The position numbers were made by a program, and so were the translations under genes. From positions 32,001-96,000 of the forward strand of contig CAVXAT010000002.1 of the NCBI GenBank assembly GCA_963759805.1: DNA of 64,000 bases. The letters run 5' to 3'. Below the pieces are notes generated by a model, which had not been told where the DNA came from, did not search any database, and was given only the letters and a program-made list of their open reading frames with translations. Position 1 is the stretch's first letter. Each line of letters opens with the position of its first letter. The stretch comes from an uncultured bacterium. Its GTDB lineage: Bacteria; Babelota; Babeliae; Babelales; RVW-14. Of this stretch, positions 3,858 through 56,647 are shown one piece after another.

Positions 3858-4016
3858 CTCGCATCCTTCGACAGGCTCCCAGACTTCGCCCTTCCCACTC
3901 CGCTCAGGTAGCTCCGAGGGACAGGTCGTGGCTACGCCGGGCACGGCAGGACGAGCGCCATGAAGTAGGCGCGCTCGTGGTGAGCTCGTCGAACCATCAC
4001 CCTGTGACGCGCCGGG
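3858..4016. mobile_element. Composite nested palindromic element (outer element, 36-bp unit, 33-bp unit) between the LptD-like gene and pepP
   Basis: Outer parts nearly identical to 55519-55540 and 55577-55645; inner 69 bp (3879-3947) is the reverse complement of 14942-15010 with 2 mismatches. Confidence 0.85.
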
Positions 4017-4019
4017 CCT

Positions 4020-6413
4020 CTACTGCTCCCTGCGCATTATAGGCTGACGTCTAAATTTTTTAGCAAATGTACCTAGCGAATCTAACTTTAAAGCAAAAAC
4101 AAATGTATGCTCTGTCGTATTATTACCATACTCACGATATTTTTTAACCTCAATTCCAAAATATAAACCCCAACAGTGTCCGTTTATTTCCATTCTTACT
4201 CTATGAATCAAAGGGTTTAAGCCTTGTAAATCTGCAAAATGGCAACCCTTTTCATCATAAAACTGGCCATCATAACAAAGTACTACCTCTTTGCTAATTG
4301 GAATTGCAATATTCACAAAAATAAAATGCGGAACATTTGATAAAAGCTCACGGATCCGTTGTAATAATGGGTACTGATAAAAATAACCGGCGGAGATGTT
4401 TAGCTTATCTTTAAAAATACCTAACCCTATCTGAGACTGAAGTAAACGAGCCCGACCAAACTCAACTTCTTGAGCTAAAGAAAGTTTTAAAATACTGTAT
4501 CCAATACTAAAATCATAACTAAGCGGTAAAAGATGCCGTTGTCCTACTCCGCGACGCAGGTAAAAAATATCGGATTGACTATAAAAATCATACCCCTGCT
4601 CAATATTCAGATCGATATTCCAGTTTTTCCAATTCAAATTATTGGAAATATTTCCGGACAGTTCGTTTATTGGATATGCTCGATCCCACAAATCCATGTA
4701 ATACCAATTTTTTTGATAAAATTTAGGCAAGAATGTCCACTTAATTGTCGGCTGCATAAAATTAGAGCAACTAAAATCATCACTATAACTGGTGACCTCA
4801 GGCAGAGCCCATTCAGCACCATATTTTGAGTAAATTCTATAAGCTCCATTCCCCAACAGATGATCCTCGATAACATTTTTTTTATGAATATCTTTTGAGA
4901 AAGTGTTACTTCTAAACTGAACTTGCGGTTCAGCAAAAAGCCTAATGTTGCTATTTTTTAAATTAATGCGCGAATGAAGATTCCCCTTATATCCAGCCCT
5001 GAATACATCATGCTTTTTAGGAGGAATCAACAACGATTCATTAATCATTCTTGAATTTACAAAGATACGCCCTATCTTAATTTGGCTACAAGAGATCTCA
5101 TCAAAAAACAGGTCATGCCGATAAAATAATGTATTATATAGGCTCCAGTTGGAAGCATTCCACTCAAAATGAGGTAGCTTTACCGTGTTAAACCTATCTT
5201 CAATCTCTTTTTTTGTAACAAAATCATCATTAAACTCAATAACTTTTTCTTTATGATCATTAGCGAATTTTTTAGCAAAAACAATCTCCTCCCGAGTAAG
5301 ATTTAAAAATTGCTTACGACTTGTACGCTCTTGATCCCATTTTAATTCAACCAAATGCTTACTGGATAACCCCCTAAAAATAACCGAATTAAAGAATGTG
5401 TCATCAACCTCTTCAATGTTATTATAAAAGTAGTATCCAATCTGTTTATCCGTACCAAAATCTGCACGGATAAGACTTCTAAAATCAAAATTTCCAAGAT
5501 GCGTCAGATATGTAAAATCCTTACCCTGAATCCAATACCTATGCTCTGTTTTTGGAACAATATTGTCATTTTCTAAGGCATACGAATCGTTGACTACGGC
5601 GTACTGCCCATAGGCAGTTGTAAATGAATCGGGAGACCGCGCCCATCTAAATTCATCTGAAAATACACAGCCTCTTCGCGTTTTAAAATCTAAGCCAAAC
5701 GTAGTATCACAATGTCGATTGATATATTTGTAATACTCTACTTTCACGCCAAAACCAAGACTATAATCAAATGAAAATTTTGGAATTAAAAAACCTGACT
5801 TTGAACGGCCCTGAATTGGCAAAGCCATCCTTGGCACATAAAAAACCGGAATTCCACCTGTTTTGAAAAGAATATTCGACGCATCTATGAAATAACTTCC
5901 GTGTATAACAGCCTTTGTCGCACTAAAATACCAGTGTAAATCCTCTTGATCACAAGCCGAAAACAGAATATCTTCCATTCGCCAGTTAAAATCATTAAGT
6001 TTTTGTGCCCTCTTCGCAGAAATATACCCTTCATCCATATGAATTTTTATATTCTCGGCATAACCTGTTTTATTTTCAAGATTCAAAAGAATATAATCAG
6101 TTAAAATTACAAAATCATTATTTTCAATTTTTACCGGACCACATTCAGACATCTTTGCAATCAGTGTCTGCTCCTTACGATCTATCTCTACCCTGTCAGC
6201 AGACAAACGAAATTTTTGATCTATGATCGCATCGACGGCGCCTTCAAAAATGATTCTGTTCTCATCAATAACCGTCTGTTTTAAACTGTTTACGCGCAAA
6301 AATTTACCGGACGTTGAGGATTTTATAGCGGCATTTAAATTAAAAGAAAAAAATGTAAGAATAAGCAGCAAACCCGCTTGTCGCAAATAACTTTTAAGCA
6401 TATTCAAAATCAA
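4020..6413 (-). CDS. lptD: LptD/OstA-like outer-membrane LPS assembly protein
   Basis: Signal peptide, OstA-like N-terminus (F.G.V, L.AD.V.I), FSAC......W, GIPVFY.P....P...RSKSGFLIP motif, beta-rich C-terminus. Confidence 0.7.
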   Translation of the reverse strand: MILNMLKSYLRQAGLLLILTFFSFNLNAAIKSSTSGKFLRVNSLKQTVIDENRIIFEGAVDAIIDQKFRLSADRVEIDRKEQTLIAKMSECGPVKIENNDFVILTDYILLNLENKTGYAENIKIHMDEGYISAKRAQKLNDFNWRMEDILFSACDQEDLHWYFSATKAVIHGSYFIDASNILFKTGGIPVFYVPRMALPIQGRSKSGFLIPKFSFDYSLGFGVKVEYYKYINRHCDTTFGLDFKTRRGCVFSDEFRWARSPDSFTTAYGQYAVVNDSYALENDNIVPKTEHRYWIQGKDFTYLTHLGNFDFRSLIRADFGTDKQIGYYFYNNIEEVDDTFFNSVIFRGLSSKHLVELKWDQERTSRKQFLNLTREEIVFAKKFANDHKEKVIEFNDDFVTKKEIEDRFNTVKLPHFEWNASNWSLYNTLFYRHDLFFDEISCSQIKIGRIFVNSRMINESLLIPPKKHDVFRAGYKGNLHSRINLKNSNIRLFAEPQVQFRSNTFSKDIHKKNVIEDHLLGNGAYRIYSKYGAEWALPEVTSYSDDFSCSNFMQPTIKWTFLPKFYQKNWYYMDLWDRAYPINELSGNISNNLNWKNWNIDLNIEQGYDFYSQSDIFYLRRGVGQRHLLPLSYDFSIGYSILKLSLAQEVEFGRARLLQSQIGLGIFKDKLNISAGYFYQYPLLQRIRELLSNVPHFIFVNIAIPISKEVVLCYDGQFYDEKGCHFADLQGLNPLIHRVRMEINGHCWGLYFGIEVKKYREYGNNTTEHTFVFALKLDSLGTFAKKFRRQPIMRREQ

Positions 6414-7024: not shown

Positions 7025-7052
7025 GCAAAGCCTATTTTAATATCTTGATAAT

Positions 7053-8956: not shown

Positions 8957-9808
8957 TCAAACCAACCCACCCAATCCCCGAACAATAGCCTCCAAAACGA
9001 CGTGCCAGTCATCATCCTGGTTAACTCCAACCTCAATCAAAAGGGCTGGGGCAACAATTCCACACAACGGTTTGAGCGGAATGCCGTAAAAACCCCCAAA
9101 ATCAAATATTTTCTGGTTGTCTGCCCCTGAAAGTGCATTTGACAACTGTTGACCAATATTTTTTGTTCTGAAAATACTAACTTGATGCGCCTGCAAAACC
9201 GATATCATTTTAAGAGATGGGAATGTCCTGTCAACAAAATCGCCAACAGGGTCTGCCACATGCTGGTAAACATAGACCTTTGGCCTAACTGACTCTAATT
9301 TAAAAAGATGGACACTTATGAATAGATCTACGTTTAAACGGTTGGCAAACGAGGCATTCTGAAAATCGACTATCTTTTCCCCGGGTACACGGGTCAAAAC
9401 AACCCTGAAATCATACGCTCGTTCAAAAGCACTTTGAAGCTCTTGGGCAAACCTAAACGTCGCGGCACGCTCAAAACCACTCAAGCTACGCCCCGGATCC
9501 CCCGCATGTCCGGCGGGATTGATCATAATGACCTTCTTTGCACCCTTGAGAGAAGGATCAAGAAAGGGGGCATTAGCGTAAGCCATAAAATTAGTTGCGA
9601 AAGTAGACAACCCCGCCATCAAAGTTAATGTGATTAAAAATAGTCTTCTTGCACAACTTGGAATTTTAAAAAGGCGCGCTCGTGGTGAGCTTGTCGAACC
9701 ATCGCCCGGCTTGTCCGTCGTAGCTCGAAGAGCGAAGTCGGAAGGGCGACGGGCCTGGTCATGCAAGAGATCTATTAGTCTGATTAAAGCTGATTTAAAT
9801 ATCTTCAT
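8957..9808 (-). CDS. N-acetylmuramoyl-L-alanine amidase (Amidase_3 family), with a palindromic element in the N-terminal region
   Basis: INPAGH.G, V.LTR, A.FAN....DLFISVH, PALLIEVG; hydrophobic segment after the inserted peptide; start codon uncertain. Confidence 0.78.
   Translation of the reverse strand: MKIFKSALIRLIDLLHDQARRPSDFALRATTDKPGDGSTSSPRARLFKIPSCARRLFLITLTLMAGLSTFATNFMAYANAPFLDPSLKGAKKVIMINPAGHAGDPGRSLSGFERAATFRFAQELQSAFERAYDFRVVLTRVPGEKIVDFQNASFANRLNVDLFISVHLFKLESVRPKVYVYQHVADPVGDFVDRTFPSLKMISVLQAHQVSIFRTKNIGQQLSNALSGADNQKIFDFGGFYGIPLKPLCGIVAPALLIEVGVNQDDDWHVVLEAIVRGLGGLV
9672..9754. mobile_element. Palindromic element carrying a nested 33-bp unit (9710-9742)
   Basis: Shares gctcgtggtgagcttgtcgaaccatcgccc...gggcgacgggc with 21790-21837, where the loop is only tat. 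Confidence 0.85.
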
Positions 9809-9855
9809 GCTGTCATTCTAGCCTAAAACAAGTATCTTTACAAATTTGGCAAAAG

Positions 9856-14200: not shown

Positions 14201-14240
14201 GTGTGTTAGGAATTAGATGTGTGTGTTAGGAATTAGATGT
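14201..14240 (+). repeat. Perfect 20-bp tandem duplication spanning the acs RBS/start
   Basis: gtgtgttaggaattagatgt x2. Confidence 0.9.
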
Positions 14241-16309
14241 CTGAATCATTGACAGAAAGTAGCTTGAAGTTTTGGGAAAAGCAGGCTCAAAAATTACCTT
14301 GGTTTAAAAAATGGAATCATGTTCTAGCATGGAATGAACCATTTGCACACTGGTTTGTTGGCGGTCAAATAAATGCCTCATACGCATGTCTAGATATTCA
14401 CATTAAAAACGGATTGCAGGACAAAACAGCAATCATCTGGGAAAGTGAGAATGGTAGCTCACAAACTCTCACATACGGCCAACTTTATGATCAAGTAAAT
14501 AAATTTGCCAGTTTTTTACAAACACAGGGTGTTAAAAAGGGCGACATCATCGTCATTTATCTTCCAATGATTCCTGAAGCAATTGTGGCCATGCTGGCAG
14601 TGGCACGGCTTGGGGCAACGCATTCAGTAGTGTTCTCAGGCTTTAATACAACGGCATTAAAAGATAGAATTGTCGACACTCAAGCCAAATTCGTAATTAC
14701 AACTGATGCGGCATTTTATAGAAACAAAAATATTGTCCCGAAATATGTTGTATCAGACGCAATCAGACAGATTAGCCAGACTGCGCATGACAATGCAGCG
14801 CAAGCAAATTTTGTTAAAAAAGTTATTGTAATTAAGCGAACAGAAAATTCAATAACTATAAATCCCGATCTTGATGTTATTTACGACCCAAACACCTCAA
14901 CGGGTCCGATGGAACCTAGCCATGCGGAATTTGTTCCCGCCGCCGTGCCCGGCGTAGCCACGACCTGTCCCTCGGAGCTACCTGAGCGGAGTGGGAAGGA
15001 CGAAGCCTGGATGCCTGTCGAATCCAATCACCCTCTTTTTATTTTATATACATCCGGAACTACAGGAAAACCCAAGGGCATCGTCCACTCAACCGGCGGA
15101 TATTTAACTTATGTTTATTCAACAATTAAATGGGCTTTTAATATCAGCAAAGATTCAATTTACTGGTGCACGGCAGACATTGGGTGGATTACGGGGCATT
15201 CGTACGTAGTCTACGGCCCCCTCATGCACGGGGCAACAATTTACATCCGCGAGGGCGCACCTGACTGGCCAACTCAGGATGTCTGGTGGAAGGCAATTGA
15301 AAAGCATAAAATTTCAATTTTTTACACATCCCCAACGGCATTACGTATGTTCATGAAAATGGGTAACGAGAATATTTTAAAACACGATTTATCCAGTTTA
15401 AAAACGCTTGGTTCGGTTGGCGAACCGATAAACCCTGAAGTCTGGCGATGGTTCAATGATGTTATCGGACAAAAAAGGTGTCCGATAATTGATACGTGGT
15501 GGCAGACGGAAACAGGTGGTTTTATGATCTCTCCAACCGCAGGACTTAATCCTACCACAGAGCTTAATCCAATTGCAGAAATAAAACTTAAACCCGGGTC
15601 CGCAACCTTTGCATTACCGGAAATTGATGCTGACATTGTTGATTCAGGCGGACAATCCGTACCACCCGAAACCAAAGGGTTTCTTGTAATCAAAAAGCCT
15701 TGGCCGGGAATGGCAATTGGAATTCATAACAATCCACAAGCATTTCGTGAGATTTATTGGTCAAAGTTCCCAAGCATGTATTATTCAGGCGATTATGCAA
15801 TAAAAGATTCCGAAGGGTATTTCTGGTTACTTGGCCGAGCAGATGAAGTATTAAAAATCTCCGGCCATAGAATTGGAACATCAGAAATTGAAAGCATAAC
15901 ACTTGAACATGAAGCAATTGCTGAAACTGCAGTTATCGGAATTCCTGATGAGATAAGAGGAGAAGCAATAATTATATTCTCGATTCTCAAAACAAGTTTC
16001 ACCGTGAGCATTAGCACTGAACACGAAGTATTAAAACACGACGTATTAAAACACGACGTGTTGGAACACGAAGTGTTCAAGCAAGAAATCTTGCAAAAAA
16101 TCAGAACTCAGATTGGTGCATTTGCAACTCCAAAAGAGATTCACTTTGTTGAAAGTTTACCAAAAACCCGTTCGGGGAAAATAATGCGTAGACTGCTTAA
16201 AGCAGTTGTGCAGGGTCAAGCAATCGGAGACCTGTCCACATTGGAAGATGGAACGTCGATTGAAGAAATTCAAGCAATTTATAATATGATTAAGAAACAG
16301 TTGGGATAA
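14237..16309 (+). CDS. acs: Acetyl-CoA synthetase with an in-frame 23-aa element-derived insertion
   Basis: [57 protein letters not shown]. Confidence 0.96.
   Translation: [690 protein letters not shown]
14942..15010 (+). mobile_element. 69-bp palindromic module (36-bp unit containing a 33-bp unit at 14964-14996) inserted in frame in acs
   Basis: 67/69 identical to the reverse complement of 3879-3947; encodes [23 protein letters not shown]. Confidence 0.9.
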
Positions 16310-16333: not shown

Positions 16334-16918
16334 TTAAGAACGTGCAAATGTAACTAGTTTTGAATAATCTCCTTGATCTGCTAACTTCAATGCATCAATA
16401 TACTGTTTTCGAATTGGTGTAGCCTTATATAAATCCTGATTTATTCCCCAACTAAAACGGGGATGTCCCAATTGCATTATAAGCAAATCAGCCATCAAGC
16501 GCGCATGTCGCCCATTCCCGTTAGGAAAGGCATGAATCCACACTAAACGATGGTGTAATCTTACCGCAATTTCGTCATCAGAAAAAGATTTGTTCTCCAG
16601 TTGATAATTAACATCATCACAAAGTTTTTTCAACTCGACTGGAATAATAGGCCAGTCAACACCTATATTTTTCCCATAATGACGAAAGATCCCTGCCCAC
16701 TTCCATGTTTCATTAAACATCTGTTTATGTAGCTGCTGAATAAAATGAACCGAAATAATATCCTTTTTTTCACGCCCCCATTTTTCGGCAGCAATAATAT
16801 TTTTTTGTTCCCAAGCATTCAGTTGTTCATGAGTGGTAATATGTGTTGGGATTAAATCGGCAATTTCCTCCGGCTCGATGGGCGTAGCGCCCTCCGGATA
16901 ATTAAATTTCATCATCAC
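16334..16918 (-). CDS. Fic-domain protein (mobile mystery protein B type)
   Basis: YP.GATP......LIP.HI.T...LN.WEQ.NI; WKWAG.FR....NIG; Fic motif HAFPNGNGRHAR. Confidence 0.88.
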   Translation of the reverse strand: MMMKFNYPEGATPIEPEEIADLIPTHITTHEQLNAWEQKNIIAAEKWGREKKDIISVHFIQQLHKQMFNETWKWAGIFRHYGKNIGVDWPIIPVELKKLCDDVNYQLENKSFSDDEIAVRLHHRLVWIHAFPNGNGRHARLMADLLIMQLGHPRFSWGINQDLYKATPIRKQYIDALKLADQGDYSKLVTFARS

Positions 16919-17384
16919 TCCAAAGATTTCTTGGACTCCCTTGAAGCAATTCCTCTATCAGATCATCCTCCTGTTGACGCCTCTGCTCAGAAGAAAGCCC
17001 CTGTTGTTCCAATTTCATTGAATGCTCCACAACGCTAAGGCGTTTTCTTGCAACCAATTGCGCTCTTTCTTTTAGTATCTGATCAAAGGGCTTGTTTGGA
17101 ATGAAAAAATATACGCAACGACAATTCATCGCCCTTGCAACCTGATCAAGAGCCTCTAAGGAGATAGTTCGCTCCTTTTCACGACGTTCAAATGCCATCA
17201 CATTCGACTGAGTACACCCCAACCGCTTGGCAAGTTGCTGTCCTGATAACCCCAGAACTTTACGAATAACCTGAATCCATCCATTCTTGGGAACATGTTT
17301 TTGAGCTAAAATGTTAAGGTCAGTTAAGCTCGCCTGTACTTGATCACGCATCATTTTCTGAAAATTTTTTCTCATAATAATCAC
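16902..17384 (-). CDS. XRE-family HTH protein (mobile mystery protein A type)
   Basis: P..GWI..IR..LG.S..QLA.RLG; SM.LE.Q and P..LW tail; adjacent to the Fic gene. Confidence 0.85.
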   Translation of the reverse strand: MIIMRKNFQKMMRDQVQASLTDLNILAQKHVPKNGWIQVIRKVLGLSGQQLAKRLGCTQSNVMAFERREKERTISLEALDQVARAMNCRCVYFFIPNKPFDQILKERAQLVARKRLSVVEHSMKLEQQGLSSEQRRQQEDDLIEELLQGSPRNLWSDDEI

Positions 17385-21729: not shown

Positions 21730-21789
21730 AAAACCCCCTTGGTTTTTGTTATCAACTAGAACTCTTCTGTAACTATGCACTTTTTACTA

Positions 21790-21837
21790 GCCCGCTCGTG
21801 GTGAGCTTGTCGAACCATCGCCCTATGGGCGACGGGC
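21790..21837. mobile_element. Minimal 48-bp palindromic element (no nested unit) between grpE and pssA
   Basis: gcccg...cgggc ends; core gctcgtggtgagcttgtcgaaccatc shared with copies at 3973, 9678 and 55602. Confidence 0.85.
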
Positions 21838-21859
21838 AAAGTTAGGAAAAAAGTCTCTT

Positions 21860-22921: not shown

Positions 22922-25900
22922 ATGAAAAAGATTTTTCATGTTTTTTCGATGTTACTGTTGTTAGGTTCGTTACAAGTTGATCTTTGCGCAATGCAGGAAC
23001 CAGATGATGCAACGACTCCCGTTGAAATACCAGTAGATCATCCAAATTCCGGCCTGATAAACGGCCAGAGCATCTGTTATCTAAACGCTGTAATTCAATG
23101 TCTTTCAAATCTTAAAACTTTCAGAGAAAAATTGTTAGCCCACGAAGACACTTATCAGAACAATCCTCTTGTTTTAAATTTAATCAGATTATTCAAAGAC
23201 TTAAGAACAACCACAGAACCTGCAATACAAAATGACACCTTGATTGGCCATGTAAAAACGTTAATCACAAATCAATCAGGAAATGCACGAGAACACTTTC
23301 AAGATGCGGATGAAATTCTAACTCTGTTGTTAGGACAAATTAACAAACCAAACAAAATTTCTTTAGAGTTACAACTTGATCAGAAAGTTAAATGCCTTGG
23401 AGCTCATGGTGCAGCCGGTTGTCAGCACGAATCCCCAAAACATGAGACGCATGAAACAATTGCATTACCACTTGATGAAATTGCCACTCAAAATACACTT
23501 CAAGCATTGCTTGAAAGCTTTTTTACATCATCATTCGCACATGATTATGTTTGTGATGGTTGTGGTAAAAAAAATACATCTTTTAAAACTTCTAGAATTT
23601 CAAAAAACCAAGATGAATTAATTATCACGTTAAAAAGATTCAATTCAGATGGGACCAAGATAGATACATCTATTTCATTTCCAATGGAACTCGATTTAAA
23701 GCCTTATTCAACAGATGGGCTAAAACAACAAGCCGGCGTAGATCTTTCATATGAATTAGTTGGTTTTGTTTGTCATGGCGGTAACCATTATATTTCATTT
23801 GTAAGAGATTTTGGAAATGGGGAATGGTACATGTATAACGATTCGGCAGTCAGCGATGAAATAAATTTGCAACTTATACAAGGGATTACCACGACAGGTA
23901 GTTTTTCACTAAATTCTCAAATTTTCACACCATACATTTTGTTTTATCAAAAAAATGGAATCGGGGGGCAAACGCTTGCTCATCCAACAGCACAACAATC
24001 TGTAGATCAAGATGAAGGCGAAGATTGGGATTCATCAGATGGCGAGGATGAACTTCAGCCGCCAACAACTAAAGGCTTTTTTAGCTGGTTTCTTGGATGG
24101 GCTACCGGTAACAACCAAAGAGAAGACGAGCGAAGAAAACAAGAAGAGGTTAAATTGCAAGAAGAGGCGATAAAGAAACGTCAAGAGGAGAAACTAAGGA
24201 TGCGAAGGGAAACTAGACTACAAGAAGAAGTGATAGAAAAACGCCAAAACCTAGGACTCATGAAAGTCGAAGCACTCCCATATTTAAATTCAGTCGTACA
24301 GTGTCTTTCGAATCTTAAAAAATTTAAGACTAAACTATTTGCAAGTGAAAATGATTATAAAGATGATTTTTTAATTCTTAGCCTTATTAATCTTATCAAA
24401 AGACTGAAGAATTCTAGCGAATCATTAGGAAATCAAGATTTTGTAGAGCAAGCAAAGATTTTGGTGCAACAAAGTAAAAATAATGAAGTTGCACTTCAGG
24501 TGGCAGATGAATTTTTAAATTTGTTATTTGATCGTCTGCATACCCAAGACATGGAACCTCTTAATCTCCTAATTAATATAATTACCCAGTGCATAAAAAA
24601 CAAAGATATATCAGGTTGCGAATATTCTTTAGATGAAGATGGAGTTGTGCAACCCAAGACAAGCCTATGTTTTAAAGAATTAAAAAGTGTCCAAGAAATT
24701 TTGGCAAAGCAATTTTCACCTTCTTTTGATAAAGGGTACACCTGCAAATGTTGTCATAAAGCTGGAACTTCTGTTATTACACAGAAATTTTTACGCTGCC
24801 CTTCCGAATTAATAATTTCTTTACAACGATTTGATTCATCTGGAAATAAAGATTTATCGCCAGTTATTTTACCATTGATACTTGATTTGACCCCTTATCT
24901 TAGCCATGAATTACTACAACAAATCGATCAGGCTCCGTATGAATTAGTGGGCATTGTTTGTTGCAATCGAAACTCTCAATATTATTCTTACATGAAAAAT
25001 ATTGCATCAGATAAATGGTTCCGGTACAACGATGAGTCCGTTGTAGAGGTCAGCAATCAAGAAATTAAAACGCTGGCAGATTCCGGAATAGATTCGCAAA
25101 ATTTTGTGCCATACATTTTATTTTATGAATTAAAGGAGTCCGAATGCCATACAAGTGCATCTCAAGCGCAACAAAGTTCAACTGCAACGAAAGATCAAAG
25201 ATCAAACGCTAAAAACACACAAGAAATAATGGCTCAAATGACGAAACTTTGGAATATAAAGAAGCAACAAGAACGGGACCTTAAACGTGCTCAGGGCGTT
25301 GCAAAATCGGCTGATAAAAATCTAGTTAATGCGCAGTTGGATGGAGCCGATTTAACCGATTTGGATTTGAATGGGGCAGATTTAACGGGTGCGTCTTTAA
25401 TCGGTGCAACATTGGTTAGAACAAAATTGAATGGCACAATTTTGGCCAATGCAAAGTTAAATAATGCAATTATTTCGGATGTTCAATTATGCAATGCGAC
25501 ACTAAAAAACACAGATTTGAATAATTCAACAATAACGAATATAACCGCTCATAACATAACTATCTCAGATGGTACAAAATTTGAGAATGCAACAATAAGC
25601 TCGCTAAATCTAAAAAATATCAAACTACAAAATGTGTCTTTTGCAAATGCAACATTAAAAAATATCACATTTTCAACCTCATTAATTGATCATGTAAATA
25701 TGGCACACATACAAGCTGAGGAGTTATATTTAAATGAATCTTCGCTGACAAACATAGATTTCAGCAGGGCTTGCATTGTAGGTCTTGATATAAGCAATGC
25801 AAACATCATAGGAGATTGGTTAAATTTCAGATATGCAACGATAAAAACGGGGTGCATTAGGGGAACAACCACATCTAGAAGACCTAGCCCTGGCGAACGC

Positions 25901-26512
25901 TCAGATGGCATCACAGAAAAAGAAAATACAGGACTAATAATGGATACAGTAGGCGTTTCAACACTTGTGACATCTACAGCTTTTGGTACTGTTACTATTC
26001 CTATTCCGATTGTTGGATCTGCCGCTGGATTTTTCTATGGATTGTTTTTGGTTGGAGTTGAGCTTATCATTCACGATGAATACCTCGACTCAAAAAAAGA
26101 TTTTGGCGCTTCAAATATTAACAGCATTTTGCTCAATTCCGATTTTTATGGAGCATCATTACAAGACGTGATTGTGCAACATGTAAAGCTTGGTAATTGT
26201 ATGAATATTGGAAGAATTAGAAAAGCAGTTGGAACCAATTTTGATAACATTGTAAGTAGCAATCCAAAGGATTTGGACGATTTAAGACACAAGGGCGCTT
26301 GTGTAAATGAAATTCCATCAGACGAATTTAAAGTACTATGGCCTACAAAAGGAAACGATCAGAAAGTTTTTTGGGTCAAGCTACTTGCTGGTGCTGCGCA
26401 TGGAACCCTCTCAGGCACCATATCAAAAGTTGAGACAAATTTACGGGACAAACAACAAGAGGCAAAGTATAAGTCTTTTATATCTGAAGAAATACAAAAA
26501 ACAAGAAAATAA
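22922..26512 (+). CDS. Exported protein: USP/peptidase C19 domain, degenerate second USP domain, pentapeptide repeats, hydrophobic tail
   Basis: Cys box GLINGQSICYLNAVIQCL, QDADE, LKRF, His box HYISFV, WY.YNDS.V, PYILFY; second copy GLMKVEALPYLNSVVQCL...LQRF...WFRYNDESV...PYILFY; A(D/N)LxG-type repeats. Confidence 0.88.
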   Translation: MKKIFHVFSMLLLLGSLQVDLCAMQEPDDATTPVEIPVDHPNSGLINGQSICYLNAVIQCLSNLKTFREKLLAHEDTYQNNPLVLNLIRLFKDLRTTTEPAIQNDTLIGHVKTLITNQSGNAREHFQDADEILTLLLGQINKPNKISLELQLDQKVKCLGAHGAAGCQHESPKHETHETIALPLDEIATQNTLQALLESFFTSSFAHDYVCDGCGKKNTSFKTSRISKNQDELIITLKRFNSDGTKIDTSISFPMELDLKPYSTDGLKQQAGVDLSYELVGFVCHGGNHYISFVRDFGNGEWYMYNDSAVSDEINLQLIQGITTTGSFSLNSQIFTPYILFYQKNGIGGQTLAHPTAQQSVDQDEGEDWDSSDGEDELQPPTTKGFFSWFLGWATGNNQREDERRKQEEVKLQEEAIKKRQEEKLRMRRETRLQEEVIEKRQNLGLMKVEALPYLNSVVQCLSNLKKFKTKLFASENDYKDDFLILSLINLIKRLKNSSESLGNQDFVEQAKILVQQSKNNEVALQVADEFLNLLFDRLHTQDMEPLNLLINIITQCIKNKDISGCEYSLDEDGVVQPKTSLCFKELKSVQEILAKQFSPSFDKGYTCKCCHKAGTSVITQKFLRCPSELIISLQRFDSSGNKDLSPVILPLILDLTPYLSHELLQQIDQAPYELVGIVCCNRNSQYYSYMKNIASDKWFRYNDESVVEVSNQEIKTLADSGIDSQNFVPYILFYELKESECHTSASQAQQSSTATKDQRSNAKNTQEIMAQMTKLWNIKKQQERDLKRAQGVAKSADKNLVNAQLDGADLTDLDLNGADLTGASLIGATLVRTKLNGTILANAKLNNAIISDVQLCNATLKNTDLNNSTITNITAHNITISDGTKFENATISSLNLKNIKLQNVSFANATLKNITFSTSLIDHVNMAHIQAEELYLNESSLTNIDFSRACIVGLDISNANIIGDWLNFRYATIKTGCIRGTTTSRRPSPGERSDGITEKENTGLIMDTVGVSTLVTSTAFGTVTIPIPIVGSAAGFFYGLFLVGVELIIHDEYLDSKKDFGASNINSILLNSDFYGASLQDVIVQHVKLGNCMNIGRIRKAVGTNFDNIVSSNPKDLDDLRHKGACVNEIPSDEFKVLWPTKGNDQKVFWVKLLAGAAHGTLSGTISKVETNLRDKQQEAKYKSFISEEIQKTRK

Positions 26513-27564: not shown

Positions 27565-30500
27565 ATGAAATTTAAAAATATTTTGATTTATCTTTTTGCT
27601 GTAGGGCAGGTTGGTTTTGCATGGGGAATGGGAAGAACACAATTTGCTAGTTCGTGTACAGAGCTCTGGTTTCAGGGAAGCAGTATACAGGACCAGGCAC
27701 GTCCCACAACCTCTAGTGAATGGGGTATCAGAGTTAATTTACCTTCACGCAGCAGGTACACGAGCGAATCCTCATATTCACGGTCTAGCGGTCCTTTGAG
27801 AAAATGTTTTGCTAATTCACCAACGAAGGCTGTATTTAATTTACCTAATCTTGTGAGTTCTCATCAGTATAAAACTCTTGATAAGGCATTTAGTGCACTA
27901 CTAAATTCAGACGCTACTGTGAAAGCTGTACAAAATGACCCGAATGTTCTTGTACAATTGTATTCCGCATTGGCACAACTTCATGAGCAAATGGCTTTTC
28001 AGGATAAAAAGAACACTTTGGTTACAGATGGTACACACTGGTTTTTACAAAAACCAAATGGAAAACGGCTCGATTTAACATCAAAAGTGTCCAATGCCTC
28101 TTATGCAATAAACCAATTTGTCTATGAAATTAAAGATGAATTAGAAAGCAAAGGAATCCCTTTTGATCTTGTTTTGCGCAGCCATCGCGAATGTGTTGGT
28201 TTTTCTAAAGATGGCAAAAAAGTAATTCATCGATACTCTGGTCTCCCCGGATCCGGGCAGGAATATGTTCTTGATTTGATTGTATCCACGGAAGATGATG
28301 GATCCAAAAAGATTACTCACAAGATTAAGAATAAAAATAAAGTAAATGATAAAAATTTACGAAAACCAAAAGATGTACAACCGCCAGCTCCCACAATTCC
28401 ACATGCTCCAACTCCCACTCCAGATATCCTATACAAGGGCGTAATTTTATCCCAACAGCCTCTCTTGATTGATACAAGTGTTGATGCACGTTGTAAAGGC
28501 ACAATAAAAACTTACATGGACTCTCCTAAATTTGCCGAAAAGGCATATTCTCTTTTTAATTCCAAAGATGCATTTAGGGGAATCCGTTTTACAGAAAATG
28601 ATTTTAATTTAACAGAGAGGAGTCCTGATGGAACACTTGTCTATATTGCAGGAGCTTTAGTGGAACACGAAGATGGCACGAAAGAAGCTGGCGCTATTAG
28701 AATTGTTGTAAAACCTAATCCAGAAATGCCTGAAATAAGAGAGATACATTCTTATGTTGGAGAATTAAATAAAGATGTATCCAATGGGTTGGATGTTAAT
28801 CCGCTCACTCAGGACCGACCCGGCAAAAAGGACGATGGCGTTTCTTCTGATCCTAAAATCTCTCCCACACCTAAACACATCTTTGATATGTCAAAGCTTT
28901 TAGATTCTGATCTTAAGCAGATTGACCTACACCATTATATGTTGAATCAATCGACAAAACAATTTGTCAGATTTAACTCTCACATTGACAGCTTACAACA
29001 GGGTAGAGGAACACAAGCCGCAGATGGTTCTACTACAAAACCCCAGCAAGGTCCTAATACTGGTGCAGCTGGTGATAGAAAAGACAAAATAGCTCCCGAA
29101 AACGAATATACAGAAGCAGGTCAAACGCATAAAAACCTTGCGGGTCAGCATCAACTTGAAACTCAAGATCAAGATGATGAATTGCCCAAACAAGAATCCT
29201 CTCAGGCAGGGGCAGCTAATGTTGACGCCAAAGCTGCCGAAGAGGCAGCTGCAGCTAAAGCCCAAGCTGAAGCCGAAGAAACAGCCGCCAAAGCAGCTAA
29301 AGAAGAAGCCGACGCTATGGCAAAAAAAGCAGTCGATAAAAAAATAGCATCTGAAGCCTCAGCAAAGAAAACCAGAAGATCTAAAGCCATCCTAGCTCAA
29401 CAAAACAAAGATATAACCCAAAAATCTCTACACCAAGCTGAACAAATTGAAGCATTGGTAAATAAGGGGTTCACTAAAGATCTCGCAAAAATGAAAGTAT
29501 GCGCACCCAGAGAATACAGTGCATTTGTTAAATTGAGCGATAAACAGATTTTGCAACGTGAAGAGCTATCCACAGCTAAAACAGATGTAGGGGGCACAGC
29601 TAAGCCATCCCAGCCAGTTGAAATGTCACAACCAATCAGACTCACACTTGCAGATCGTTTTCAACAAGCAACTTCTGTTGATTCAGGAACTCAAGGAAAA
29701 CAACCAGCGCTTAATTTTTCGATAGAAGATCGAAACCGTGGATTCAAAGAGCGCATAGCACGCATGCAACAACACTCAACAAGCAGATTATCAGAACAAC
29801 CAAAAGCACCTGTAATACCAGAAGTACCGGTAAAACCAGTTGAAACGCCAACTCAGGCACCACAACCGCAACAACCAACATTTATAGAAAGAATTAGAGA
29901 GCGTGCTGCTGAAGTTATTGAAATGGCCAAAATACCAGCCCTGGAAACACTCAAAACCGTTGTGACATCTGCCACAGATAATCTTTTAAAATACTTTTTT
30001 ACTTCCCCTCCCACCATGGACGGAAAACATTTCTTTGGTGAAGGCCCAGAAGAGACAAGATATACTCCATATTTGGATAGGCCACTACTAAATTTGCAAA
30101 GTAAATTGCATCCAGACATGGAAATGCAAGACTCATCACAAAATCTAGCAACTGCAGCTGCTTCTTCTGGCGAACAGGAATATCCGATTATGTTCGATCC
30201 CACAGCTCGCCCAGTAAAAATAACGCACACTGGATATTCTTCATCTAATCCTACGGAAGTAGAAAAACCCTTTGTAATGCCTCACGATGTCGGCATTGAA
30301 GGACCAACTGCAACAACACAAACTGGTCACTTAAACCTGGAACAATTTAAACGCCACACAGACTACACGGCAAAGAAAAGTGCAGAATTGGCAGAGATTA
30401 CTCGTGATAACCCAACGCTGCAAAATACCTGCAAATTTGTGGATGCTCTGAATAGATTTGCTAACTTATATGCAGAGGCTGATGATGGGGTTGGAGCAAC

Positions 30501-31563
30501 CGCTTTGGGCAAAGCCGCACAAAACACATTGCGCAATGCACAAAGGGCTGCGACAGCATTGGGTAGAGGTGCAATTCGAGGTGCTGAGAAATTTGATCCC
30601 AAGGTTATGTTTGTTGCCAATGCAAAACTTGCAATGTTTGCAATTGGGGAAATTAGCAGGCAAGAAACTGTCGACCAGGCCTTTTTATCTTTCAATCCTG
30701 AACAAGCTGAGCAGGCGGCTTCGGCACATGCTCAACATTGCACAGAACAGTATCAAGCATTTTCAACGGCTGCCAAACAAACTCTTGAGCGGTTAAGGAG
30801 CATGCCATGGGAAGAAGTGCTTGAAAATGGTTCTGAGCTTGGTGTTGATCTTGTTATGCAAGGTGTGTTTATTAACGGACTGGGCAAACTTGGTGGAACA
30901 GCATTGCAGCGTTTTGCTGCATTAACATCGGATTTAAATGAAATTGTCAAAGCTGAAAAAATAGCCGCTGCCACTGGAAAGGCTTCCGCTCAAATTACAG
31001 AGCTTGGGCAACAGGTTGCTGTTGTAGGTAAACTTACTGAACAAGAGGGATCTGAAGTAGCAGGAAGAGTTGTTGGAATTATTAAAGATAATCCCGAGCT
31101 TATCCAGAGCGAATTTGGTTTTGTACAAACTGTAAGAGCTGTATCAAAAATTGAGCAAAAGCCACATTGGGAATCGCTTGCGCTTGACCCTGCCCATGGA
31201 AATAAAATAAGTATCAAAAGTATTGAGGAAGCTTTGGCTGGAATTGCTGCTGAAGAAAAAGGATTTTTACCAGGACCTATTAGGCGCGATCCGAGCGCAG
31301 CCGCAGAATTTATTGATACATTAGGAAGAGCTTGGGATGTTAAAACTCCACTATCACTTGCTCCCAATGGGCAACATGTTTTCAAAATCGACCAGGTATT
31401 TAGTAGTATCAAACGAGAACTAGGACTTGGCGAAAATGTCATCTTGAGTATGATTAAACTTAATAAAGAGGATGCGTTGTCTTTGATTGCAAAATTAAAA
31501 ACAGAATTGTCAGCAGCTGAGATCGAAAAAATTATTACTGTTTTTAGAGAGGACTTATTTTAA
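27565..31563 (+). CDS. Large exported polymorphic-toxin-like protein with a putative PD-(D/E)xK-type nuclease C-terminus
   Basis: GGAGGTTATC-ATG start at 27565; signal peptide; low-complexity linker; C-terminus LALDPAHG..EEA..G.....G....PIRRDP...AEFID..G..WDVK; small ORF immediately downstream. Confidence 0.72.
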   Translation: MKFKNILIYLFAVGQVGFAWGMGRTQFASSCTELWFQGSSIQDQARPTTSSEWGIRVNLPSRSRYTSESSYSRSSGPLRKCFANSPTKAVFNLPNLVSSHQYKTLDKAFSALLNSDATVKAVQNDPNVLVQLYSALAQLHEQMAFQDKKNTLVTDGTHWFLQKPNGKRLDLTSKVSNASYAINQFVYEIKDELESKGIPFDLVLRSHRECVGFSKDGKKVIHRYSGLPGSGQEYVLDLIVSTEDDGSKKITHKIKNKNKVNDKNLRKPKDVQPPAPTIPHAPTPTPDILYKGVILSQQPLLIDTSVDARCKGTIKTYMDSPKFAEKAYSLFNSKDAFRGIRFTENDFNLTERSPDGTLVYIAGALVEHEDGTKEAGAIRIVVKPNPEMPEIREIHSYVGELNKDVSNGLDVNPLTQDRPGKKDDGVSSDPKISPTPKHIFDMSKLLDSDLKQIDLHHYMLNQSTKQFVRFNSHIDSLQQGRGTQAADGSTTKPQQGPNTGAAGDRKDKIAPENEYTEAGQTHKNLAGQHQLETQDQDDELPKQESSQAGAANVDAKAAEEAAAAKAQAEAEETAAKAAKEEADAMAKKAVDKKIASEASAKKTRRSKAILAQQNKDITQKSLHQAEQIEALVNKGFTKDLAKMKVCAPREYSAFVKLSDKQILQREELSTAKTDVGGTAKPSQPVEMSQPIRLTLADRFQQATSVDSGTQGKQPALNFSIEDRNRGFKERIARMQQHSTSRLSEQPKAPVIPEVPVKPVETPTQAPQPQQPTFIERIRERAAEVIEMAKIPALETLKTVVTSATDNLLKYFFTSPPTMDGKHFFGEGPEETRYTPYLDRPLLNLQSKLHPDMEMQDSSQNLATAAASSGEQEYPIMFDPTARPVKITHTGYSSSNPTEVEKPFVMPHDVGIEGPTATTQTGHLNLEQFKRHTDYTAKKSAELAEITRDNPTLQNTCKFVDALNRFANLYAEADDGVGATALGKAAQNTLRNAQRAATALGRGAIRGAEKFDPKVMFVANAKLAMFAIGEISRQETVDQAFLSFNPEQAEQAASAHAQHCTEQYQAFSTAAKQTLERLRSMPWEEVLENGSELGVDLVMQGVFINGLGKLGGTALQRFAALTSDLNEIVKAEKIAAATGKASAQITELGQQVAVVGKLTEQEGSEVAGRVVGIIKDNPELIQSEFGFVQTVRAVSKIEQKPHWESLALDPAHGNKISIKSIEEALAGIAAEEKGFLPGPIRRDPSAAAEFIDTLGRAWDVKTPLSLAPNGQHVFKIDQVFSSIKRELGLGENVILSMIKLNKEDALSLIAKLKTELSAAEIEKIITVFREDLF
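30289..30520 (+). repeat. 232-bp direct repeat, copy 1 (inside the toxin gene)
   Basis: Aligns ungapped to 31987-32218 with about 13 mismatches by hand count. Confidence 0.92.
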
Positions 31564-31986: not shown

Positions 31987-32218
31987 GTTGGCATGGAAGG
32001 ACCAACTGCAACAACGCAGACTGGTCGCTTAAACCTGGAACAATTTAAACTCCACACAGACTACACGGCAAAGAAAAGTGCAGAATTGGCAGAAATTACT
32101 CGTGATAACCCAACGCTGCAAAATGCCTGCAAATTTGTGGATGCTCTCAACAGATTTGCTAACTTGTACGCAGAGGCTGATGATGGGGTTGGAGCAAACG
32201 CTTTGGGCAAAGCCGCAC
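31987..32218 (+). repeat. 232-bp direct repeat, copy 2 (start of the orphan cassette)
   Basis: See copy 1; an ATT codon of copy 1 corresponds to the ATG at 31993. Confidence 0.92.
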
Positions 32219-33301
32219 GACAAACAGTGCATTATGCCGAAAATATAACAAAAATATTTGGCGGTCACATTCAAGAAGCTCTTCTTGGCGTTTCAGATTC
32301 AGGCCTGGATCACCTTGACTTTGGAACAGAAGCTGCGTCTCATCCACAAGAAACTTTAGTAAATATGGCTAATGGCCTCAAAGAGCTTACAATTTTTACT
32401 GCAAAAATTATGGCAATAGGAGAGATGTCTCTAGATAATTCAGAATTAGCACTTGATGCATTTAATAGAGAAATTAGGCCAACGGTGCAACCATTGTACG
32501 ATAGACTCGAAGCTATGACGGGACCGGAAAGAACCAGATTTATAACACGTACATTCTGTAATCTTTTTTTGGGGAAATATCTATCGATTGGCTTGCAAGC
32601 GGCATCCCTTGGTATATCTGTACCAAACATTCAGCAATTTAGGTTAGCAACTGCGGCAGCAAAAGAGTTTTATGGATCTTTGATTAATGAAGCAGAAATA
32701 GTAAGTAGAATTCCAAATTTTGCGAATTTGCCACAAAATATGCAAACTCTTTTATCTCCTCTTATATCGATGACTGAGAATCCTGGTAAGTTGGTTGAAT
32801 TAGGAATCAACAAAGGCCAAGAATTTGCGAGAAGGATTGCAATAGCACTTGGGCAAAATCCAGAGTTAGTCGTTACAGAAGGCTCATTTGATGGTGCTGT
32901 GGCAAGACTTGTGGGTGATTTCGAAAAAGAAGGTGCGGCGGCAGCTGCAGCCGATGATTTGGCAAGTTTTAGAAAAAGTGAGCGTGGAGCCTCTTCAGGT
33001 ACTGCTGTTCAAGCTGAGCAGAGTTATGCTAAAATGTTTGAGCAGAGAATTAGCAAGATGCCAGTGGGTGAAAGAGTTGCAGCGGTGACAGAAGAGGCTC
33101 AAAGAATAGCTGCGGCTAGAGGATGGGAAAAAATGGGTCAAATATCTAGAAGAAATGGGGAAAGAATTGTTTACAAAGATAAAAATGCATCGAAACTTTA
33201 TTCTGTGGATATATACTGACCCCATAAAACTAGACAGTGCAACTTGAGAAAATAAGTACTTTAAAAATATTAGTTATAACAATGAGCCCGGGGGGCATTA
33301 A

Positions 33302-52789: not shown

Positions 52790-52816
52790 ACCGTTGATAG
52801 TGCGCTCGTCGTAGGC

Positions 52817-53518: not shown

Positions 53519-53544
53519 GTTTGTTGAAAACTCTGGGGCAATCC

Positions 53545-53958
53545 TTTTGGGCGACTTGTAAGCTGGATTCTGTAATTGAATATTACTTCAATCGACAACC
53601 ATTTATCTATGCGACATACCCGCGAGTATAAGGAACAGGTGACCAACTCGCTTACTTTGTCTTGCTCCGGATGGGGTTTTCCCACCAACCGCATTACTGC
53701 AGCTGTGCGTGCGCTCTTACCACACGGTTTCACCCTTACCCAGGATATGATACCCCGGGCGGTATATTTTCTGTGGCACTTTCCATGGGCTTACGCCCCC
53801 CTTATTTGTATAACCCCCGATTTTACTCAGTTGTCATCTTATAAGGCATCCAACCTGCTAGGAGTCCAGACTTTCCTCTCTTTACTGATTTAAACGGGCC
53901 CGATTCAAACGGAATCGTTTAAATACCGGTAAAAAGCGATTGCCCCGTACACCCAAAA
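53545..53958 (-). ncRNA. rnpB: RNase P RNA
   Basis: Minus strand GAGGAAAGTCTGGAC, GGAAAGTGCCACAGAAA, GGGTGAAACCGTGTGGTAAGAGCGCAC, AAACCCC..CCGGAGCAAG, ACAGAATCCAGCTTA; terminal pairing cttttgggtg / cgcccaaaag; exact ends approximate. Confidence 0.93.
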
Positions 53959-54409
53959 GAATTACTTTTGTTATTATTATATTAATAAAAATTTCAAAAA
54001 GAAAGTCAGCATTAAAAAATGGCTTATTAAGCAGCATTTTTCCAATCAAAAGATGATCAAAAAAGAGAATTCCTACGATTAATAGATAACAGACATACTC
54101 CTGCTTAGCATCAATTACCTCCCGTAGGTATGACATCAAAACTATGACAGGAATCAAAAAAAGAAGAATTAAACCGAATCTACCATTCAGAAAACAGTCC
54201 TGTAAAAGCAGCAAAATTATGGGAAAATAACAAAATTTAAACGATGCTTCAAAGCGATCCTGCTTTAGAGAATGAACAATAAAATAGATAAGTAAACTGT
54301 TCAGATACCACCCATTCCAAAAGGAGAATGCCACAAAATCCAGAAAAAAGAATACTAGTGCTATCATTTTTACCCAAAGATCATTTCTGCCCAAACTGTA
54401 CTGATTCAC
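53882..54409 (-). CDS. Multi-pass membrane protein, possibly MreD-like; 3' end overlaps rnpB
   Basis: About 5 TMs, LLLQD.FLNGRFGL motif; MreD assignment tentative. Confidence 0.6.
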   Translation of the reverse strand: MNQYSLGRNDLWVKMIALVFFFLDFVAFSFWNGWYLNSLLIYFIVHSLKQDRFEASFKFCYFPIILLLLQDCFLNGRFGLILLFLIPVIVLMSYLREVIDAKQEYVCYLLIVGILFFDHLLIGKMLLNKPFFNADFLFEIFINIIITKVILLGVRGNRFLPVFKRFRLNRARLNQ

Positions 54410-55358: not shown

Positions 55359-55384
55359 AGTTAATCCCGATTAATCCCGCCGAT

Positions 55385-56647
55385 TTAAGAACAGATCACT
55401 GCGCAACCCAAGCAGATATCACCATCATAAAAGACGGCAAACTGCCCCGGCGCAATGCCCTGATCATTGCCCTCGATTTTTACGACGCCAGTAGTTGGGC
55501 CATTATCTCTCTTCTGGCACTCGCATCCTTCGACAGGCTCCAGCCGTCGCTCTTGGAGAGCTATGGCCGGCACGGCAGGACGAGCGCCATTAAGTAGGCG
55601 CGCTCGTGGTGAGCTTGTCGAACCATCACCCTGTGACGCGCCGGGTTTCATATTATCTGGGCCCAAAAGATCAAGCGTAGCTTTATACAAGCTTTCACCA
55701 TGCCTGATCTTAACTTGCAGATCGCGTTTTTCAGGCGCATGCTGCGCAATCCAGTTAAAATCACATACAGTAAACGTGTCTCTTGATTTATCTTCTGAGT
55801 AATAATTTTTTGAAATATAAACGATATTTTTAACCGTATCTTTTTTAACAACATACCACGGGCCGCCTGAAAGGCCTATCCCCTTGCGTTGGCCAACTGT
55901 GTAATACCAGAAACCCTCATGTTTTCCAACCACCTTGCCCGTCTCAAACTCAATCAAGTCCCCCTCACGCTCCTTCAGGTGATGTTTTATAAAATCACTG
56001 AATTTAATTTTGCCAAGAAAGCATATTCCTTGGCTGTCTTTGCGATATTTGGTCGGAAGATCAAATTTTTCAGCCAATGCTCTTACTTCGGATTTTAAAA
56101 GATGACCAATTGGGAAAAGGGCTCGGGACAACTGTTTTTGACTCAAACGTGCTAGAAAGTATGTCTGATCTTTAACCGGATCTTTGGCTTTTTTTAAAAC
56201 AAACAGGTCTTCGACCGGACCAGCTTCGCCTTGCCCATTGGCTTTAATCTTCTCGACTTGGGCATAATGCCCTGATGCAACTTTTTCAAATACCCCTGGC
56301 CTTAAACTGTCGATTTTGTCGTAGAAACATCCGAATTTAATGAACTGATTGCATAAAACGTCCGGGCTTGGCGTCCGTCCTGCCTGAATCTCTTTGATTG
56401 TGTATGCAACAATTTTATCATGATACTCCTGCTGCATGGGTATGATCTCAAGCGGAACTTGCAGTTTTTCACAAACTTTTTGAGCATAGTCCAAATCTTC
56501 CTGCCAAGGACAATTTCCAAGGTAAGAGAGCTCATCTTCAAGCCAAATCTTTAAGTAAAAGGCGGTCAGATCATGCCCCTGCTCTTTGAGCAACTGTAGG
56601 GCAACCGAACTATCAACCCCTCCGGAAAGTAAAACAGCTATTTTCAT
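55385..56647 (-). CDS. mnmA: tRNA-specific 2-thiouridylase MnmA with an in-frame ~42-aa element-derived insertion
   Basis: SGGVDSSVA, GRTP.PDV.CN..IKF, SGHYA, KDQTYFL, KDSQGICF, TVGQRKG, PGQFAVFY. Confidence 0.96.
   Translation of the reverse strand: MKIAVLLSGGVDSSVALQLLKEQGHDLTAFYLKIWLEDELSYLGNCPWQEDLDYAQKVCEKLQVPLEIIPMQQEYHDKIVAYTIKEIQAGRTPSPDVLCNQFIKFGCFYDKIDSLRPGVFEKVASGHYAQVEKIKANGQGEAGPVEDLFVLKKAKDPVKDQTYFLARLSQKQLSRALFPIGHLLKSEVRALAEKFDLPTKYRKDSQGICFLGKIKFSDFIKHHLKEREGDLIEFETGKVVGKHEGFWYYTVGQRKGIGLSGGPWYVVKKDTVKNIVYISKNYYSEDKSRDTFTVCDFNWIAQHAPEKRDLQVKIRHGESLYKATLDLLGPDNMKPGASQGDGSTSSPRARLLNGARPAVPAIALQERRLEPVEGCECQKRDNGPTTGVVKIEGNDQGIAPGQFAVFYDGDICLGCAVICS
55519..55645. mobile_element. 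Composite palindromic element (outer element plus 36-bp unit at 55541-55576) in frame inside mnmA
   Basis: Outer parts match 3858-3878 and 3948-4016 almost exactly; a different insert occupies the same gctc^agg position. Confidence 0.9.

Follow-up and report, generated by a model that had tools for sequence, protein, structure and literature searches.

Short hairpin repeats dispersed through bacterial genomes are known in several forms. According to the main text of PMC11893778, the nuclease SsnA cleaves single-stranded DNA at a distance of a few bases from its hairpin, and the ssnA gene is flanked by that hairpin; the authors liken this layout to IS200/IS605 and repetitive extragenic palindrome (REP) systems and leave the role of Ssn outside Neisseria open. 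The GTAG and CGTC REPs, as described in PMC3733652, are short tailed hairpins that form spaced dimers, have intragenic copies and in some families lie within other palindromes, and the CGTC REPs are without a dedicated transposase. In-frame palindromes such as the Rickettsia palindromic elements (RPEs), REP dimers, REPs within palindromes, MITEs (miniature transposable elements with inverted repeats) and the Ssn layout are in print (PMC10969869, PMC3733652 and PMC11893778). Here we describe five GC-rich elements (GC 0.65-0.70 versus 0.38 for the whole window) in a 64,000-nt stretch of DNA (hereinafter the window; G000:C2:32001-96000) of an uncultured Babeliales bacterium of the Babelota (Dependentiae), whose genome (G000, the source genome) is represented by a 1.50-Mb assembly of 21 contigs, 88.7% complete and with ~37% GC.

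The five elements are nested in up to four layers, namely a shell, a hairpin A, a hairpin B and B within B; their orthologous sites are empty in relatives, their units occur separately elsewhere, and hairpins A and B pair with different clades of stand-alone GIY-YIG genes. New here are this separation into layers, with tests of cross-specificity, and the assignment of the shell to IS5. We give a probability of roughly 0.6 to the reading that the elements are layered mosaics, in which a shell with IS5-type ends would be moved by an IS5 transposase, and hairpins A and B would each be cut by a GIY-YIG nuclease of their own, the nick starting the copying of the hairpin.

Layered structure of the window elements

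A first-pass annotation had proposed that the window holds five related elements decomposable into hairpin modules that insert into one another and into genes. A direct check placed all five where that annotation had them (3858-4016, 9672-9754, 14942-15010, 21790-21837 and 55519-55645), and blastn searches with them as queries recovered 59 loci in the source genome. The features concerned, in window coordinates, are:

3843-4016, plus strand: intergenic composite upstream of pepP, made up of a worn shell end on the left (3843), a hairpin A interrupted by B, an inverted second A and a cap hairpin; empty in G001, G002, G003 and G007
3878-3946, plus strand: B unit (36 nt) in hairpin A, enlarged to 69 nt by a second B; the empty 36-mer has 9 genomic copies
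3893-3925, plus strand: 33-nt B unit nested in the outer B's loop, a loop position shared by all 6 copies in the genome
2520-3824, minus strand: pepP, Xaa-Pro aminopeptidase family, with a conserved ATG at 3824; start common to orthologs
9641-9774, plus strand: TA-flanked inverted-repeat shell with IS5-type ends, in frame in the amidase N-terminus; absent in G002 and G003
9672-9754, plus strand: hairpin A (GGT/ACC stem form, minus strand) and cap hairpin, within the shell
9710-9742, minus strand: B unit (33 nt) in the cap-hairpin loop; G002 (L363) has the shell with an empty 3-nt loop
8957-9808, minus strand: host gene for an N-acetylmuramoyl-L-alanine amidase (Pfam Amidase_3, E 6.6e-8); start common to orthologs
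14942-15010, minus strand: B-in-B unit (69 nt, 23 codons), cleanly between an Ala and a Met codon of acs; empty in G003
14964-14996, minus strand: inner B unit (33 nt) of the acs insert
15011-15022, minus strand: acs coding stretch resembling hairpin A's 5' arm at 10 of 12 bases, in the register of the composites
14237-16309, plus strand: host gene acs, acetate-CoA ligase (TIGR02188 above cut-off)
21757-21858, plus strand: eroded shell (102 nt) round the minimal A and cap-hairpin core at 21790-21837, between grpE and pssA; ~100 nt absent in G002 and G003
55504-55645, plus strand: mnmA composite of an eroded shell end (55504), A split by B, an inverted A and a cap hairpin; part of a 162-nt in-frame insertion (54 codons)
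55540-55575, plus strand: 36-nt B unit that splits A at the junction used by the 69-nt unit at 3878
55385-56647, minus strand: host gene mnmA, tRNA 2-thiouridine synthase (TIGR00420 above cut-off)

The proposed decomposition holds at each level. The units at 3878-3946 and 55540-55575 share one junction, whose uninterrupted form exists in two exact copies (C11:96276 and C21:6775); the 69-nt unit is the 36-nt unit with an inner 33-nt unit, at pepP as well as in acs, and the 36-mer without its inner unit recurs in 9 genomic copies within two substitutions. The 33-nt unit in the loop of the 9672 copy likewise has its empty counterpart, in that G002 carries elements of this type whose 3-nt loop is empty as well as ones whose loop holds a B unit. 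What had been called an outer element is an inverted pair of hairpin A with a cap hairpin. Hairpin A consists of a 3-bp stem, a 2-nt bulge, two further pairs, a variable loop and a tail, and a pattern enforcing stem pairing recovered 93 copies in the source genome, at least one of which is a chance match; when pairing was not enforced, 85 of 86 stems were still paired, in three alternative forms. A lies inside A in three cases.

Empty orthologous sites, suggested earlier as a check, are present for all five loci and bear out the description of the elements as modular, non-autonomous and mobile. Genome-wide searches with the separate modules gave A, B and the shell each its own distribution. 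The DNA missing from orthologs amounts to 162 nt in mnmA, ~150 nt in the amidase gene, ~100 nt between grpE and pssA and ~178 nt at pepP, and exceeds the GC-rich core partly because the outer inverted-repeat shell adds length (9641-9774, 21757-21858). The amidase shell is 134 nt long, 132 nt net, and accounts for 44 codons. Insertion into genes applies to three of the five elements (amidase, acs, mnmA), whereas those at 3858 and 21790 are intergenic, the former because the conserved pepP ATG at 3824 leaves it upstream of the gene. The relatives also show repeated use of the mnmA region: among nine of them, six are without an insert, two have other elements ~60 nt off, and G002 has a different element of 183 nt, in the opposite orientation, at the very site of the window insert. 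We further observed that the mnmA genes of G016 (L016), G020 (L043) and G002 (L042) carry independent A-type insertions at two neighbouring sites.

The 69-nt unit was said to stand on its own in acs. The insertion is indeed clean, but its site is not random, as its 5' flank matches hairpin A: a 10-mer of this flank has 37 genomic copies, only four of which lie outside A, and the empty acs site of G002 already matches A at 9 of 12 bases. This likeness could mean that a target similar to A was recognized, or that a composite copy donated the sequence by conversion.

Hairpin B enters hairpins and tRNA genes

In the B unit, a stem of 5-7 bp is followed by a 3-by-3 internal loop, then by two G-C pairs and a variable loop; a short tail at the 3' end is unpaired. 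Using a structural pattern with recursive removal of units, we detected 109 copies in the source genome versus 1, 1, 0 and 0 in four Markov genomes that served as controls. Among 39 distinct stems, collected without enforcing pairing, covariation at stem positions 2, 3 and 6 exceeded all 2000 shuffles; position 5 reached p 0.006, position 4 fell short of significance, and the pattern itself largely fixes position 1. B is widespread, its pattern being present in 82 of 151 genomes of the phylum, as that of A is in 80 of 151.

Removal of 14 tandem or duplicate copies left 95 distinct B units, which are not independent events. Automatic scoring placed 27 of these in A, 20 in tRNA genes or their fragments, 13 in B and 10 in repeat C (a further hairpin family, see below), leaving 25 free; thus, 70 of the 95 lie in hosts that make up ~1.0% of the genome. 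By eye, 14 of the 25 were also nested (84 of 95 in total), and 11 were free or merely adjacent. The earlier suggestion that hairpins are preferred is upheld, entry into them being far above chance, but the supposed preference for the element's own kind is not, with only 13 of 95 B units in B: as A, tRNA genes, B and C are all entered, B prefers hairpins in general. The 74 distinct B junctions follow a rule, 70 of them having a weak base ahead of the cut and 58 a C behind it, and B insertions show no consistent target duplication.

A B unit follows 15 of the 42 tRNA genes, as compared with 0.08% of random positions, and sits just before CCA, which in most cases reappears behind B. At tRNA-Phe, B is absent in the source genome and present in G003, without duplication, and another tRNA site is filled in these two genomes by different B variants. 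Two tandem arrays of tRNA fragments broken by B were also observed, namely nine 5' tRNA-Val fragments ahead of the intact gene (G000:C19:8435-9115; L151) and three 3' tRNA-Arg fragments that come after the intact one (G000:C14:13125-13646; L150).

These tallies bear on the view of the first-pass annotation that the elements form a single self-targeting family, with lengths built as multiples of three, that exists to generate new peptide. B-in-B and A-in-A nesting would suit it, all units inserted in the window are multiples of three, and so are 31 of 62 non-coding B units, above the expected third. However, A and B are unrelated hairpins, each with a different GIY-YIG clade; the distributions of A, B and the shell differ, as do their partner genes; only the 13 units scored in B obey the self-targeting rule; and non-coding B units vary from 30 to 49 nt. 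The single-family view is largely refuted, and we regard what remains of it as very improbable.

Hairpins A and B are paired with distinct GIY-YIG clades

The first-pass annotation had seen no obvious mobilizing enzyme in the window, which is correct, the candidate movers lying outside it, and had suggested a search for REP-associated HUH transposase (RAYT) or GIY-YIG genes flanked by the repeats. The search for the latter succeeded: besides one UvrC-sized gene, the source genome has five small GIY-YIG genes. Three of these (L001-L003) encode proteins of 97-99 aa that score above the PF01541 cut-off, and two of the three (L001 and L002, 97 aa) are bracketed by inverted A copies. The remaining two (L004 and L005) belong to a second clade, a full-length relative of which has 80 aa, and lie downstream of a tRNA gene and B. 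The A-associated protein is closest to UPF0213 structures (E 4.5e-13), which the C-associated protein, encoded by L003, matches only at E 0.003; the relative from the B clade has a weak match to SLX1 (E 0.003).

We scored the proximity of repeat and gene within 400 nt across 29 A-clade loci of the phylum and 71 distinct ones from metagenomes (after 9 of 80 metagenome loci were removed as duplicates or for short flanks). A lies near 20 of the former and 48 of the latter, on both sides in 13 and 27, respectively, with none in shuffles; near the 80 B-clade genes it is never found. Conversely, B lies near 20 of the 80 B-clade genes (0.9 expected), in Babeliales, Patescibacteria, PVC groups and Alphaproteobacteria; 40 of the 80 B-clade loci have a tRNA gene nearby, versus 2 of the 100 A-clade loci. 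At the level of whole genomes (151 including the source genome, many incomplete and all kin), the A pattern occurs in 47 of 50 genomes with a match to the A gene versus 33 of 101 without one (odds ratio 32); for the B pattern the figures are 72 of 91 with a match to the B gene versus 10 of 60 without (odds ratio 19), whereas the crossed pairs (A repeat with B gene, B repeat with A gene) have odds ratios of ~3; as the genomes and copies are related, p values for these associations overstate. G003 provides a contrast, with 4 A matches versus 78 in the source genome, an empty site at the L002 cassette, and no A gene in the 1.43 Mb of that genome covered by the comparison.

Like the Ssn/SRM system, as given in the main text of PMC11893778, these loci combine a stand-alone GIY-YIG gene of ~80-100 aa with a flanking hairpin repeat that is also dispersed in the genome. 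For A this arrangement is seen on both sides of L001, L002 and 40 of 100 relatives, and for C on both sides of L003, while B stands beside L004 and L005. The two sets differ in that the nearest structures to the A gene are those of UPF0213, while the B gene is weakly SLX1-like; further, the published SRM pattern has two matches in the source genome, neither of them at a copy of A, B or C, and the words 'tRNA', 'nested' and 'MITE' are absent from the main text of PMC11893778. Separately, we noted that repeat C, with 53 copies of CGTC/TGTC type, brackets the 99-aa gene L003 (G000:C1:132730-133370), and that this is the pair in the source genome closest to Ssn, yet C misfits the published SRM pattern. 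C shares the CGTC/TGTC-type layout of the REPs described in PMC3733652, whereas in A and B the module has no terminal GTAG or CGTC tag beside a perfect stem. GIY-YIG goes unmentioned in that paper, and the A and B motifs were not found in the four supplements of PMC3733652 searched.

An alternative is that the hairpins were moved in trans, like classical REPs, by an HUH (Y1 or RAYT-like) or IS110-type enzyme, the GIY-YIG genes being cargo. IS200/IS605 chemistry typically inserts DNA at a short 5' motif without duplication, and B insertion resembles it; moreover, five Y1 genes exist in the source genome, and in G017 an IS110 gene lies at an A repeat. However, the suggested search for RAYT found none of the five Y1 genes bracketed by A, B or C, so that a REPtron-like layout (a Y1 gene flanked by its REP) is lacking; the Y1 gene near a B array has an identical copy elsewhere without B; and the genes that are bracketed encode GIY-YIG proteins, with clade-specific repeats. 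We therefore consider this alternative improbable.

The outer shell has ends of IS5 type

The shell is a separate vehicle from the hairpins. A TA-bounded inverted repeat stands beside 26 of 69 A clusters, with both ends in 8, as compared with 2.7% per random 64-nt window. In the window it forms the shells at 9641-9774 and, eroded, at 21757-21858, and leaves one worn end each at 3843 and 55504. Where the shell is intact, TA stands at both of its ends, and the net lengths (132 nt in the amidase gene, 100 nt between grpE and pssA) would fit a TA target duplication, although G003 is too diverged for a base-by-base reading of the empty TA.

An IS5 affiliation of the outermost layer is suggested by sequence comparisons. 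In G031, shell-type ends enclose a 34-residue transposase tail, whose match to Pfam DDE_Tnp_4 is weak (E 0.098) and for which tblastn searches gave annotated IS5 transposases with up to 85% identity, in 119 plasmid records. The annotated IS5 genes of Fukatsuia and Geminocystis plasmids have related repeats at both ends, and the ends of such IS5 elements match the G002 shell end at 12-16 of 17 bases; as chance matches in a best-of-scan comparison reach 11-12 of 17, it is their location at the ends of the genes that carries weight. The shell is thus like IS5-family insertion sequences (ISs) and MITEs in its TA-bounded terminal inverted repeats and in the transposase remnant of G031, and differs from IS5-family MITEs in that its interior holds unrelated hairpins, most of its ends in the source genome are eroded and no cognate transposase was found there. 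A DDE_Tnp_4 match occurs in 4 of 35 genomes of the family, and the exact shell end in 3 of 201 genomes of the phylum, all of one family, and in 2 of 401 alphaproteobacterial genomes.

The four PF01609 IS groups of the source genome were rejected as sources of the shell, their ends mismatching it. Most of the AT-rich flanks are shell ends rather than transduced host DNA. A loose genome scan for empty shells gave 27 pairs versus 16 in the control, near background, and its GC-rich pairs held A or other hairpins. Viral contigs yielded five single shell-end matches, one paired and no transposase, and blastn of the elements against plasmids and phages only short weak matches. Several further observations concern shells. 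In the alphaproteobacterial genome G512 (L379-L387), 10 shell-end matches enclose CGTC-type hairpins, one holding a nested B-like unit. In G017 (C41:6608-8275; L353/L358), an IS5-type shell holds an IS110-family gene of 317 aa, which either interrupts an A repeat or adjoins it. A second inverted-repeat shell surrounds A and B modules at G000:C9:54193-54355, C13:6422-6657, C16:5423-5658 and C16:8565-8800. Finally, host DNA may have been transduced in one instance, where a flank that is native coding sequence at G000:C2:96570 is part of the insert at C11:45598 and C2:141692.

It could be argued that only the shells are mobile, A, B and C being passive passengers or nuclease sites used by the host that spread through MITEs and gene conversion. 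Shell ends do flank many composites, a second shell type exists, flanks are common to copies in a graded way, and conversion would give the A-like acs site (10 of 12 bases) and those empty sites that resemble element ends. On the other hand, B enters precisely at tRNA ends without a shell, with different variants at one tRNA site in the source genome and G003, of the 69 A clusters only 8 keep both shell ends, and within the phylum a single family (3 of 201 genomes) has the exact shell end, whereas A and B are phylum-wide. On balance, we hold movement of the shells alone to be unlikely.

Coding copies are filtered by reading frame

The source genome contains 162 repeat clusters, 60 of them in long open frames. 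For 35 of these 60, both flanks map to one stretch of G003, and 31 of the 35 carry at least 27 extra nt (two of the rows concern one gene, and one has a frame problem in G003), whereas 4 do not; no general target-site duplication emerged for the coding inserts. B lengths are multiples of three in 29 of 33 coding units versus 31 of 62 non-coding ones (Fisher p 3e-4, with boundaries uncertain by one base), the latter ranging from 30 to 49 nt. The claim that inserted units are multiples of three therefore holds for all window units and fails as a general property; as such lengths are enriched in coding copies and not general in non-coding ones, the frame is a selection filter rather than design, and selection explains the frame-keeping gene copies as its survivors.

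The claim that the elements generate new peptide stands as far as added sequence goes, given the in-frame peptide in 31 of the 35 testable clusters. In an AlphaFold2 model of MnmA (26 sequences, mean predicted local distance difference test score [pLDDT] 81), the insert is modelled as a coil of low confidence (pLDDT <50 at residues 333-379), predicted to form a loop between two strands of the C-terminal barrel; a single-sequence fold was unusable (pLDDT 34). It is likely that the proteins tolerate the added peptides as loops and gain no function from them.

Like RPEs, as summarized in PMC10969869 and PMC3733652, these are palindromic elements of 30-200 nt in frame in unrelated housekeeping genes of a host-associated bacterium, with empty orthologous sites, three cases of this kind lying in the window. 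They differ in phylum, in their GC-rich interior of multiple families and in their candidate nucleases. The RPE1 peptide (TIGR01045) had no match in the source genome at E 1, in G002, G031, G474 and G512 at E 0.01, or on two window inserts. The ends of RPE-1 may resemble the shell ends. On the elements and next to the nuclease genes, no Rfam family attained its gathering score, and only sub-threshold matches with E up to 5 were seen. Full-text searches, which covered mainly journals outside subscription, yielded no paper on the A or B pairings or this stacking.

A proposed mechanism

By analogy with the known systems, the layered elements could have arisen as follows. An IS5-family transposase would move the shell. 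Each GIY-YIG protein would bind and nick its own hairpin on single-stranded DNA, as SsnA does, and the nick would start the copying of the hairpin into a new site, with host repair or template switching perhaps completing the insertion. The SLX1-like B enzyme would favour stem-loop DNA, and such a preference would explain why B nests in A, C, B and tRNA genes.

Several points weigh against this mechanism. SsnA itself is not known to move its repeat, and a hydrolytic GIY-YIG nuclease cannot join DNA. Both B-clade genes of the source genome are damaged or incomplete, L005 being frameshifted and L004 cut by a contig end. By pattern, 60 of the 80 B-clade loci are without B, while 17 of the 100 A-clade loci have it, and 22 of the 101 genomes without a match to the A gene still carry at least five A repeats. 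The source genome also contains the five Y1 transposase genes, other IS families and one reverse transcriptase. The predicted folding energies are weak (z -2.4 to +0.5), for which reason covariation was used as evidence of structure. As to the shell, short chance matches to its end reach the level given above, and no DDE_Tnp_4 transposase (PF13359) was found in G000, G001, G002 or G003, of which G000 is 88.7% complete. The reverse transcriptase gene lies in a 599-aa frame at G000:C20:3484-4161.

A more far-reaching version of the proposed mechanism holds that stand-alone GIY-YIG nucleases move hairpins of 30-50 nt with no transposase needed, that three orthogonal pairs exist in the source genome, and that any single-stranded stem-loop, including those of tRNA genes, can receive the hairpin of the SLX1-like enzyme by precise insertion. 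We offer it tentatively, as a possible though doubtful extension of the analogy with SsnA.

Other features of the window

The window further encodes a class A RNase P RNA (53544-53955, minus strand) and a 256-nt duplication with 91% identity in neighbouring genes (30289-30544 and 31987-32242). A gene with ~150-nt repeats (25-1551, plus strand) we take to encode a WD40-repeat protein from its look, and two small overlapping genes (16334-17384, minus strand) presumably code for a Fic-domain protein and a helix-turn-helix partner. A 1196-aa protein (22922-26512, plus strand) has what we assume to be two ubiquitin-specific-protease-like stretches and pentapeptide-like repeats, a eukaryote-like combination.

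Significance

Around 30 proteins of this bacterium gained insertions of 9-68 residues since its split from the sister species. The named enzyme-substrate pairs, the exact filled and empty junctions and the specificity controls (A, B, C) make it testable, in vitro and in a laboratory strain, how RAYT-less REP-like repeats and RPE-like coding palindromes multiply. The two further GIY-YIG clades are candidate site-specific single-strand nucleases. If GIY-YIG nucleases are indeed the movers, this would explain the spread of REP and RPE families without RAYTs, together with the new protein loops to which they give rise.

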